53,109 bases of DNA from contig JABFJY010000032.1 in NCBI GenBank assembly GCA_013116665.1, positions 1-53,109 of the forward strand, in the 5' to 3' direction. Positions 48,946 through 50,633 of this stretch are shown piece by piece (within the stretch, counting starts at the first letter, position 1; each line of letters starts with the position of its first letter). Below the pieces are notes generated by a model that searched no databases, was not told the DNA's origin, and saw only the letters and a list, made by a program, of their open reading frames with translations. The position numbers and the translations under genes were made by a program. The stretch comes from Corallococcus coralloides (GTDB lineage: Bacteria > Myxococcota > Myxococcia > Myxococcales > Myxococcaceae).

Positions 48946-49875
48946 ATGGCCATGCGTCTCCGGACATGCGGCGCCCTTTTGCTGCTGCTCATTTTTTCGG
49001 CCTGCGCCACGACGGAGCCACGCGCCCGTGCGCCAGCGGCCCGCGGTACGAGGGCGGCCAACCTCCAACGAGCGGCGGCGCTGCCCTGGAGGGATGACGG
49101 GCGGTGCGTTGTCCGCGAGGCGTCCCAGCCTTGGCCCGTGCTGGTGGAGCGGTGCTATCCGGCGCTCGAGCATGATCGCGTCGAGTTCCGTGACACCACG
49201 GGAAGATGCACGGTCGCCTCCGCTGACGCCGCGACCTTGGGACTCGGGTTCTGCGTGCTGGCGGCCCCTGAAATCGCCGTGGGAGCCGTCATCGTCCTGG
49301 GCGTGGTGGTCGTCGCCGTCGCCATCCAGGAAGAATGGGACGCCTATGAGCTCCGCCATCTCTACCCCGAGGAAGCAGGGAGCTCACGAGGGACGAAGGT
49401 TGCGTCCCGAGATGCTGTAGCGAAGCCGAAGCCCAAGCTGGAACCGGAGCCAGCGGGCCAGGGCAGACAGCCCCCGGTGCCGCCTGTGCCCGTGGACAGG
49501 ACGGGCCGCGCCAGCTGCGAGCCTGTTCCCGTGCGTCACGCGGGCGAAGATCGTGCGCATAACGAGTGTGCCGATAGGTTTCCGCCCAACCGTTATCCCG
49601 GGATGGATGTGCTTGTTGGCGGTGTACGCTTCGATGCGCTGCAAGTCGGCGCGCGTGTGTTGTGGGAGATCAAGACTCATCAATTTGATTCGTACAATTC
49701 CTATATCCAAAAAAGAGAGATCGCGAAGGAACTCAAGCAATTGGACAAGGAGCGAGCCGTCGCATTGGCATGTGGATATCGCTTCGTTATTGGGGTGAGC
49801 ACCCAAGCGCACAAAGACGCGCTACTCGAAGCAGATTCCTCATTCGATGTCGTCGTCACGGGATGCACACGATGA
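48946..49875 (+). CDS. Lipoprotein polymorphic toxin (SitA-like): N-terminal lipobox and TM/escort region plus C-terminal low-GC PD-(D/E)xK nuclease-like module
   Basis: Lipobox LLLLLIFSAC. Hydrophobic segment LGLGFCVLAAPEIAVGAVIVLGVVVVAVAI. The C-terminus GMDVLVGGVRFDALQVGARVLWEIKTHQF has a D...E.K motif. GC drops to ~50% over 49560-49870. Confidence 0.7.
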   Translation: MAMRLRTCGALLLLLIFSACATTEPRARAPAARGTRAANLQRAAALPWRDDGRCVVREASQPWPVLVERCYPALEHDRVEFRDTTGRCTVASADAATLGLGFCVLAAPEIAVGAVIVLGVVVVAVAIQEEWDAYELRHLYPEEAGSSRGTKVASRDAVAKPKPKLEPEPAGQGRQPPVPPVPVDRTGRASCEPVPVRHAGEDRAHNECADRFPPNRYPGMDVLVGGVRFDALQVGARVLWEIKTHQFDSYNSYIQKREIAKELKQLDKERAVALACGYRFVIGVSTQAHKDALLEADSSFDVVVTGCTR

Positions 49876-50633
49876 CCAGACCTGGACGCCTCACCTTCAT
49901 TGTCTACGCGCCTGCTCTCGTGGGTAAAGATGGCCGCACGCTCAATGTCGTCCATGGGATGGAAAGGGCCTTCCCTGGCTTGCGGCTGGCGTGGCGGCTC
50001 TCGGATGGCGGTCGCCCCATCGCGCTGCCGCGACGCGACGATTGGCTCGTGGAAAAGATTGAGGACGGGGGATTCCCCATTGTGTGCAACGGGGACGAGG
50101 GTTACCCCGTGACGGTGATGGGGTGGGGAAGACCGGGAATCCTCAAGCCGGGCGGTCAGCCCCAGTTCGAAGTGCATGCAGAAATGCCTTTAGACGAGCC
50201 AGTGATCGCGGCGGCGGCGGCCGTGCTTGAGGCCATGGCGGAGGGAGCACGCTCATTCTGGGGCCACGCGTCGCCGTATGGTTACGGCTCGGAAGTAGCG
50301 AAGCAGTTCCGCCGCTCGCCGGACGGACCTGAGCGCTCCCCCCGTGGGCTTCCCATGCTCACCCTTCCCGAAAAGAGCCCCAGGCCGGAGACTCCCTCTT
50401 TCCTTGGATGGGTGAACTATTGGTCCGCTGCCGCCGCGGAGGTCATCGGGTTCCCGGATCCTGCTCGCGATTCCGAGCTGCTCACGCGGGCGCGTCGCAC
50501 TCCGTCAGGCGGGTGGATCGTGCAGCTCACGGAGACGCCGCTTGATTACGACAACCCCGTGCACGTGGAAGCGCTCAAGCGGGCCTACGAACGCTTTCCA
50601 GCCATCGGCGCACGCTCAACGCCTTTGCCCTGA
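49872..50633 (+). CDS. Putative immunity protein for the upstream toxin
   Basis: ATGA overlap with the toxin stop (start MTRPGRLTFIVYAPAL). 253 aa. No recognised catalytic motif. Its 5' part has reduced GC like the toxin module. Confidence 0.55.
   Translation: MTRPGRLTFIVYAPALVGKDGRTLNVVHGMERAFPGLRLAWRLSDGGRPIALPRRDDWLVEKIEDGGFPIVCNGDEGYPVTVMGWGRPGILKPGGQPQFEVHAEMPLDEPVIAAAAAVLEAMAEGARSFWGHASPYGYGSEVAKQFRRSPDGPERSPRGLPMLTLPEKSPRPETPSFLGWVNYWSAAAAEVIGFPDPARDSELLTRARRTPSGGWIVQLTETPLDYDNPVHVEALKRAYERFPAIGARSTPLP

Follow-up and report, generated by a model that had tools for sequence, protein, structure and literature searches.

SitA toxins are lipoproteins that contain C-terminal nucleases and are encoded next to an immunity gene, sitI (Vassallo et al. 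2021 mBio, PMC8546572). Their escort domains are approximately 375 amino acids long, and SitA3-Mf1, an experimentally validated toxin of the outer-membrane exchange (OME) type, carries the Tox-REase-5 domain (PF15648), which is the TseT family (PMC8546572). The criteria given for the sorting of SitA1 to the outer membrane are that there is no lysine at position +2 and no alanine at position +7 (Vassallo et al. 2017 eLife, PMC5562445). TseT is paired with the immunity protein TsiT (PA3907-PA3908) in the H2 type VI secretion system (H2-T6SS) of Pseudomonas aeruginosa, and the two proteins belong to the families Tox-REase-5 and Imm52 (PDB 7dym, 9oz0). TseT-family proteins are reported as nucleases in a passage of PMC9635880 that cites Burkinshaw 2018 and Yadav 2021. 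Here, we analysed a stretch of 53,109 nucleotides from Corallococcus coralloides (contig JABFJY010000032.1 of assembly GCA_013116665.1; hereafter called the window), which contains a gene for a lipoprotein with a C-terminal DUF6310 domain followed by a gene for a DUF5953 protein. These two genes probably form a polymorphic toxin-immunity cassette that encodes a lipoprotein nuclease, for which a SitA-like delivery by OME is plausible, and that contains an allele-swapped specificity tract.

Structure of the toxin and immunity genes

The features of the cassette are listed in Table 1. A second ATG at position 48952 is the likelier start of the toxin gene, yielding a protein of 307 amino acids, since the homologs start with MRLR and a GAAGAG sequence is located six nucleotides upstream of this codon. 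The lipobox and the membrane region named in the original prediction, which was made from the sequence alone, are both present and conserved in an alignment of 64 homologs of the toxin. The lipidated Cys20 is invariant (64/64), the lipobox of the family reads [LFI]-S-A-C, and the +2 residue is an alanine in all proteins but one (63/64) and a lysine in none. The +7 position is mostly occupied by S, P, I, R, G or L. In the N-terminal domain, residues 31-80 were modelled by AlphaFold2 (AF2) with predicted local distance difference test (pLDDT) scores of 71-90. The hydrophobic segment at residues ~96-127 (GLGFCVLAAPEIAVGAVIVLGVVVVAVAI) is conserved throughout the family, with Kyte-Doolittle values of approximately 2.1-2.8 over 19 residues in the close family members. 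A search with the full-length toxin retrieved 857 homologs, and the best 120 of these are all full-length proteins of about 305 amino acids that cover 79-100% of the query.

Late start codons are common among the RefSeq annotations of the family (P0086, P0090, P0419, P0420 and others), resulting in forms of 196, 218 or 245 amino acids. These starts drop the lipobox or lie within the hydrophobic helix, and the lipoprotein nature of the family has therefore been hidden.

The C-terminal part of the toxin matches Pfam DUF6310 (PF19829) over residues 184-307 (E 4e-56, 188.8 bits compared to a gathering cut-off of 27), and the downstream protein matches Pfam DUF5953 (PF19378; E 4.5e-113, 377.2 bits compared to a cut-off of 25). 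The ATG of the immunity gene at 49872 overlaps the TGA of the toxin gene, as had been noted from the sequence. We compared the cassette with 80 family loci taken from reference genomes, and this ATGA junction is kept in 76 of 81 cassettes. Directly downstream of the immunity gene there is a GC-rich hairpin that lacks a U-tract and was matched in stability by none of 200 shuffled sequences. It probably serves as a terminator or as a stabiliser of the mRNA end. A promoter search found no sigma-70-type promoter.

Table 1. Positions in the window of the cassette features and of the segments used to compare alleles
Feature	Position	Strand	Description
Toxin gene	48946..49875	+	309 aa from the ATG at 48946; stop TGA at 49873-49875; open reading frame and Pfam DUF6310
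Type II signal peptide with lipobox LIFSAC	48946..49005	+	Codon of the lipidated Cys20 at 49003-49005; conservation
Small helical N-terminal domain, aa 21-95	49006..49230	+	Conserved Cys54, Cys70 and Cys88
Very hydrophobic transmembrane-like helix, aa 96-127	49231..49326	+	Invariant Pro-Glu; conservation
Linker, acidic then Pro-rich, aa 128-183	49327..49494	+	Predicted disordered; pLDDT < 50; high sequence entropy
DUF6310 toxin domain, aa 184-309	49495..49872	+	Predicted PD-(D/E)xK restriction-endonuclease-like fold
Catalytic candidates D210/D221, D230, E241, K243	D230 49633-49635; E241 49666-49668; K243 49672-49674		
Low-GC stretch	49575..49875	+	47-54% GC; GC content at third codon positions (GC3) ~0.55-0.6; present in all 80 paralogs
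Exchanged specificity tract, 743 bp	49630..50372	+	Toxin aa ~229-309 and immunity aa 1-167; identity break compared to CA049B
Segment before the tract	48946-49629		Identity to window: CA049B (L081) 99.6%; C. coralloides cassette 2 95.8%
Segment of the tract	49630-50372		Identity to window: CA049B (L081) 74.0%; C. coralloides cassette 2 99.2% (737/743)
Segment after the tract	50373-50633		Identity to window: CA049B (L081) 98.9%; C. coralloides cassette 2 88.1%
Immunity gene, 253 aa, Pfam DUF5953	49872..50633	+	No signal peptide; ATGA translational coupling to the toxin gene
GC-rich hairpin between convergent genes	50638..50677	+	Directly 3′ of the immunity stop; -32.7 kcal/mol, z -5.3

Allelic exchange at the locus

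Over 14 kb, the window shares 96.8% identity with contig RAWC01000041 of Corallococcus sp. CA049B. A different genome, C. coralloides CP034669, contains three tandem cassettes at the same site, between the vault-protein gene and the RdgC-like gene (Table 1 gives the identities to the second of these). Because the segment identities switch at 49630 and 50372, the cassette in the window is a mosaic of a CA049B-like backbone and a tract of the cassette-2 type. Most of the CA049B tract is 98-100% identical to cassette 1 of the CP034669 array. Among the loci sampled at one genome per species, no exact donor of the window tract was found, and the best match was 86.6%. The sequence repeated in the array also takes in the 3′ end of a small upstream open reading frame (ORF).

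The original prediction had proposed that a low-GC nuclease module was exchanged. An exchange did occur at this locus, as the identity to CA049B drops to 74.0% between segments of 99.6% and 98.9%, but the donor is an allele of the same family and not a foreign toxin fold. Nor does the tract comprise the entire module, since it starts after catalytic residues, inside the nuclease domain, and extends into the immunity gene, where it ends two thirds into this gene of normal GC content. Across the family, the catalytic core at residues 191-250 is conserved, and the hypervariable segments comprise approximately residues 251-272 and 291-300 of the toxin and residues 1-170 of the immunity protein, which coincide with the exchanged tract. 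In pairwise comparisons, the toxin tip diverges in correlation with the N-terminal part of the immunity protein (Spearman rho 0.39), and no correlation with the latter is observed for the N-terminus of the toxin (rho 0.03). The toxin tip and the adjacent, downstream-encoded immunity protein consequently diversify and are exchanged together, as in polymorphic toxins.

Judged from the sequence comparisons, the tract was acquired from a second allele belonging to this family through homologous recombination. The homology for recombination is supplied by conserved sequence, which makes up two thirds of the toxin gene at its 5′ end and one third of the immunity gene at its 3′ end, and the three-cassette array in CP034669 is likely a reservoir of the exchanged alleles. 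Exchange in the lipoprotein family thus appears to take place between alleles, not between folds. In the framework of Zhang, Aravind et al. from 2012, the CdiA-CT and Rhs-CT toxins are said to swap whole toxin folds after a motif such as VENN or PxxxxDPxGL. The family studied here differs in that it exchanges alleles of one fold and in that the breakpoint is placed within the toxin domain.

The CP034669 locus (L082, 5905358-5918113) contains its three DUF6310/DUF5953 cassettes at positions 3213-8629, where the window has one. The first immunity gene of this array is annotated as a fragment of 90 amino acids, yet an intact ORF of 251 amino acids exists. Outside of the cassette, the window and CA049B are only 85-91% identical at ~39000-39100 and ~45000-45100, compared to a background of 98-100%.

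The low GC content is a family trait

A fall in GC content over the C-terminal module had been taken as the mark of a cassette exchange. The fall is real: in 150-nucleotide windows across 49575-49874, the GC content decreases to 47-54%, compared to 66-78% in the N-terminal part of the toxin gene and a mean of 70.4% in the window. Within the toxin gene, the GC3 value is approximately 0.57 over the last 100 codons and 0.76 over the remainder. The immunity gene has a value of approximately 0.73, and the neighbouring genes have values of 0.85-0.98. However, the dip is present in every one of the 80 loci, from Corallococcus, Myxococcus and Pyxidicoccus to Archangium, Cystobacter and Vitiosangium, and also in the CA049B allele, which is divergent from the allele in the window. 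The mean GC content of the 80 loci is 0.567 in the last 100 codons, 0.666 in the N-terminal part, 0.657 in the immunity gene and 0.689 in the flanks. The dip is hence a stably maintained feature of the sequence that encodes DUF6310 in the lipoprotein family, and because it occurs in all 80 paralogs, it can neither date nor mark an exchange at this locus. It is explained partly by amino acid composition, namely a helix rich in K, E, Q, N and I, and partly by codon choice, and it persists in genomes with GC3 values of about 0.9.

These data also bear on the possibility that a nuclease cassette of foreign origin and low GC content was joined to a SitA escort region at this locus by a recent horizontal transfer. 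While the drop in GC and GC3 over the last ~100 codons and the mobility of DUF6310 as a C-terminal module at a deep evolutionary scale would fit such an event, we consider it very improbable. The drop occurs throughout the 80 paralogs and orthologs, which range from Corallococcus to Archangium and Cystobacter, DUF6310 is present in every one of the best 120 N-terminal hits, and the exchanged tract comes from an allele of the same family and includes immunity sequence of normal GC content.

Distribution of the family and linkage of the two genes

The immunity gene is located directly downstream of the toxin gene in all of the 80 loci, and the downstream ORF is accordingly linked to the toxin rather than conserved independently of it, in agreement with the original prediction. 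Since all 80 related loci show the complete arrangement, the combination of a lipoprotein toxin and an immunity protein is not due to chance. All 80 loci belong to the Myxococcaceae and Archangiaceae or to records mislabelled as “Comamonas”, with at least four to six copies per genome among the loci that were kept. M. fulvus/C. macrosporus HW-1, the source of sitAI7-Mf1, contains at least two members of the DUF6310 family (P0081, P0089).

A search with the N-terminal 180 amino acids gave 572 hits, and the alternative toxin C-terminus that the original prediction suggested looking for was not seen: the best 120 of the 572 hits all carry DUF6310, and none of these 120 combines the N-terminal region with a different C-terminal toxin domain. 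Recurrent “families” in the flanks were considered as accessory genes and rejected, as they were alternate-frame artefacts or neighbours of a single paralogous locus (for example, a Ser/Thr kinase).

Typical myxobacterial cassettes with 68-70% identity were identified in Comamonas-labelled records with contigs of up to 1 Mb, namely L037 and L041 (BNCN01000001/15, “Comamonas sp. KCTC 72670”) and P0389 and P0445 (“Comamonas sp. JC664”). These assemblies are probably mislabelled or actually myxobacterial.

DUF6310 and DUF5953 are predicted relatives of TseT and TsiT

The PD-(D/E)xK-like motif that had been recognised in the sequence, FDAL...WEIKT, is conserved in the family. In 93 diverse DUF6310 domains, D230 is present in 99%, E241 in 97% and K243 in 99%, and D210, D221, H205, C191 and C276 are each kept in at least 92%. 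The structural model suggests an alpha-beta-beta-beta-alpha-beta core with the conserved D...(D/E)xK residues, which characterises the PD-(D/E)xK superfamily. We therefore interpret DUF6310 as a putative PD-(D/E)xK nuclease, for which the nearest solved relative would be the T6SS effector TseT.

Sequence methods did not reveal this relationship. The Tox-REase, PD-(D/E)xK and Imm profiles in Pfam gave no match above threshold, the NCBIfam search had no match for either the toxin or the immunity protein, and searches of PDB sequences with the toxin domain, a profile of the immunity protein and a profile of diverse DUF6310 domains returned spurious matches only. The Imm52 profile (PF15579) gave a marginal match to the immunity protein (E 0.037, 14.1 bits compared to a cut-off of 25) and matches 3 of 41 members of the family. 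Searches of the cassette against PADLOC and PHROGs gave marginal matches only, and the toxin had no match in PADLOC. Cluster names across all sources were DUF6310 or DUF5953, and no paper naming either domain was found in the literature that we searched.

The structure predictions, in contrast, connect both proteins to TseT and TsiT where the sequence methods fail. The model of the immunity protein was built with sequences from database matches. Two independent models match a single solved toxin-immunity complex, each on a different chain, and this is strong evidence, at the level of predicted structures, for a divergent relationship of the DUF6310/DUF5953 pair to TseT/TsiT. Both partners are predicted to share the fold of their counterparts, although their sequences have no detectable similarity: the structural alignments give 6% and 14% identity, and hidden Markov models give no match. 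The link between DUF6310 and Tox-REase is structural only, and the DUF5953 protein is predicted to be a cytoplasmic TsiT/Imm52-like protein. The systems also differ in delivery, in that TseT is delivered by PAAR/T6SS with chaperones while the toxin in the window is a lipoprotein. TseV/TsiV and PA0820/PA0821, which are VRR-Nuc toxins with DUF3396 immunity proteins (Hespanhol et al. 2022, PMC9635880), represent a different nuclease subfamily and are PAAR-like effectors of the T6SS.

Over deep evolutionary distances, DUF6310 is a modular C-terminal toxin domain. Residues 180-309 were used for an exhaustive search, which yielded 208 cluster representatives of 200-1130 amino acids, in which DUF6310 is always located at the C-terminal end. 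As is typical of polymorphic toxins, the domain follows unrelated N-terminal delivery or anchoring regions, including those of lipoproteins. Among 67 diverse members, it is fused to eCIS_core (the former DUF4157; 14 proteins), Transglut_core (6 proteins) and the PAAR-like DUF4280 (2 proteins), as well as to LysM or CBM_2. A second myxobacterial architecture of approximately 200-230 amino acids consists of a lipobox, a Pro-rich linker and DUF6310 only. We also surveyed the 42 diverse DUF6310 proteins with at least 200 amino acids upstream of the domain, and in 30 of these a 19-mer of strong hydrophobicity is located among the 140 residues preceding DUF6310. The density of such 19-mers is 0.56 per 100 amino acids just before the domain, compared to 0.02 elsewhere, suggesting that the hydrophobic helix travels with the nuclease whatever the carrier.

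Neighbouring genes

The gene directly upstream of the cassette (46133-48400, minus strand) encodes a bacterial homolog, 755 amino acids long, of the eukaryotic major vault protein, with Vault repeats 1-4 and the MVP shoulder domain (E 3e-45). It is 98-99.6% conserved in other Corallococcus, and the gene call in CP034669 comprises only 349 amino acids. Between this gene and the cassette there is an ORF of 76 amino acids (48644-48874, plus strand) with a signal-peptide-like N-terminus, a Cys-rich tail (…CSASCKPCSSQYDCGSREGSCGVWRCTNPM) and no Pfam match. It is confined to this chromosomal site (L001, L081, L082), and duplicates of its 3′ end lie between the tandem cassettes in CP034669. Further upstream (43313-44905, minus strand), a protein of 530 amino acids that belongs to the conserved backbone contains LysM and a T6SS_VgrG3-like C-terminal (peptidoglycan-degrading) domain but not the VgrG spike part. 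On the other side of the cassette, a convergent gene (50692-51381, minus strand) encodes a protein of 229 amino acids with no Pfam match and overlaps a gene (51371-52018, minus strand) for a protein of 216 amino acids, which has a partial match to the RdgC profile only (E 7e-10). These two genes may represent a split or divergent RdgC.

Proposed delivery and function of the toxin

The cassette resembles the SitA systems in several respects. The lipobox of the toxin agrees with the outer-membrane sorting criteria of SitA1 (PMC5562445), a C-terminal nuclease is encoded immediately upstream of its immunity gene in one operon, and the family has many divergent copies per genome and is restricted to genera of the Myxococcaceae and Archangiaceae. 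Moreover, three of the six SitA families (SitA4, SitA6 and SitA7) have one fixed, non-modular toxin family with allelic variation, and the toxin of SitA7 is described as a predicted DNase. The cassette differs in that DUF6310 is not among the toxin domains named in PMC5562445 and PMC8546572, and in that it has no sitB gene and does not lie on an obvious mobile element. Several observations weigh against a SitA-like toxin of the Tox-REase type. The region preceding the toxin domain comprises ~165 amino acids with a transmembrane-like helix, as compared to an escort domain of ~375 amino acids, and it matches no family in Pfam or NCBIfam. No conserved sitB-like accessory gene was found in the flanks of the 80 loci, and no member of the family is named SitA or SitI in the public sources. 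The profile check of the C-terminus that the original prediction suggested gave no match of the toxin to a Tox-REase profile in Pfam at E <= 1, TseT was not retrieved by the DUF6310 profile, and the match of the immunity protein to Imm52 is below the threshold. Finally, so hydrophobic a helix would be expected to act as a stop-transfer sequence and therefore to retain the protein in the inner membrane of the producer, at odds with transport to the outer membrane.

By analogy with SitA, delivery by outer-membrane exchange is nevertheless plausible. The toxin gene would then produce a lipid-anchored pre-toxin that consists of a signal peptide, a Cys-containing periplasmic domain, a helix, a flexible linker and the DUF6310 nuclease. 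As an outer-membrane lipoprotein, it would be passed between kin-recognising cells by TraAB, and the hydrophobic helix may help the nuclease across the inner membrane of the recipient. Nucleic acid would be degraded in recipients that do not have the matching immunity allele, and the DUF5953 protein would bind and block its cognate toxin in the cytoplasm. Specificity would be located in the last ~75 residues of the toxin, where a hypervariable helix lies on either side of a conserved core, and in residues 1 to ~165 of the immunity protein, and these two parts would be inherited and exchanged jointly.

The stop-transfer property of the helix is also the starting point for a different explanation, in which the pair is a toxin-antitoxin system residing in the inner membrane. 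The helix would serve as an anchor, and the nuclease would stay in the cytoplasm of the producer, restrained by the DUF5953 protein, until it is released upon envelope stress, phage attack or development, leading to abortive infection or programmed cell death instead of the killing of other cells. The very hydrophobic helix, an immunity protein that lacks a signal peptide, the absence of accessory or secretion genes near the cassette and a weak match of the immunity C-terminus to the candidate defence family PDC-M17B (PADLOC, E 0.003) are consistent with this explanation. We regard it as unlikely because the invariant lipobox, together with the conserved Cys-containing N-terminal domain, implies an exported and lipidated N-terminus, because the unit of helix and DUF6310 is elsewhere fused to the delivery domains eCIS_core and PAAR-like DUF4280 of injection-system carriers, and because multi-copy arrays, a diversifying toxin-immunity interface and allele swapping are typical of conflicts between cells. 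The lack of a PADLOC match for the toxin also speaks against it.

If the toxin is exported, it could leave the cell by a route other than TraAB, such as outer-membrane vesicles, the T6SS or a contractile injection system (eCIS), perhaps to act against prey or non-kin myxobacteria. The occurrence of DUF6310 on eCIS and PAAR-like carriers, the gene with LysM and VgrG3-C-like domains 4 kb upstream of the cassette and the dissimilarity of the N-terminal region to the described escort domain of ~375 amino acids would all fit, but we regard this route as unlikely. The toxin in the window has a lipobox but no eCIS_core, PAAR or other carrier domain, the LysM gene belongs to the conserved chromosomal backbone outside of the cassette, and the family is confined to genera of the Myxococcaceae and Archangiaceae, a clade in which OME is the sole known route for lipoprotein toxins (PMC5562445, PMC8546572).

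Possible implications for kin discrimination

The sequences and models together suggest that the cassette is a new or unrecognised member of the polymorphic lipoprotein nuclease toxins, with an Imm52-like immunity protein. DUF6310 and DUF5953 together comprise ~2000 proteins, to both of which the models would assign a function and a structural homolog (TseT/TsiT). For the lipoprotein members, low GC content is a poor proxy for cassette exchange.

The helix and the nuclease remain paired on eCIS, T6SS and lipoprotein carriers alike, which suggests a step of inner-membrane crossing that is independent of the carrier. We tentatively propose, as a doubtful extension, that the helix, linker and DUF6310 domain form a self-sufficient, membrane-crossing warhead that is common to three unrelated delivery systems, namely OME lipoproteins, eCIS cargo and PAAR-like T6SS spikes, and that the lipoproteins represent a minimal toxin family. 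If so, this family would either add a seventh to the families of the SitA type or correspond to the uncharacterised core of SitA7, and the toxin would enter the cytoplasm of the recipient by means of its own helix rather than an escort domain of ~375 amino acids that hijacks host proteins.

With SitA-like delivery, the cassette would represent one digit in a barcode of strain self-identity. The swap of a 743-bp tract, encoding the toxin tip and the N-terminal half of the immunity protein, on a backbone of ~99% identity would then be a natural example of how a kin-discrimination allele is created.

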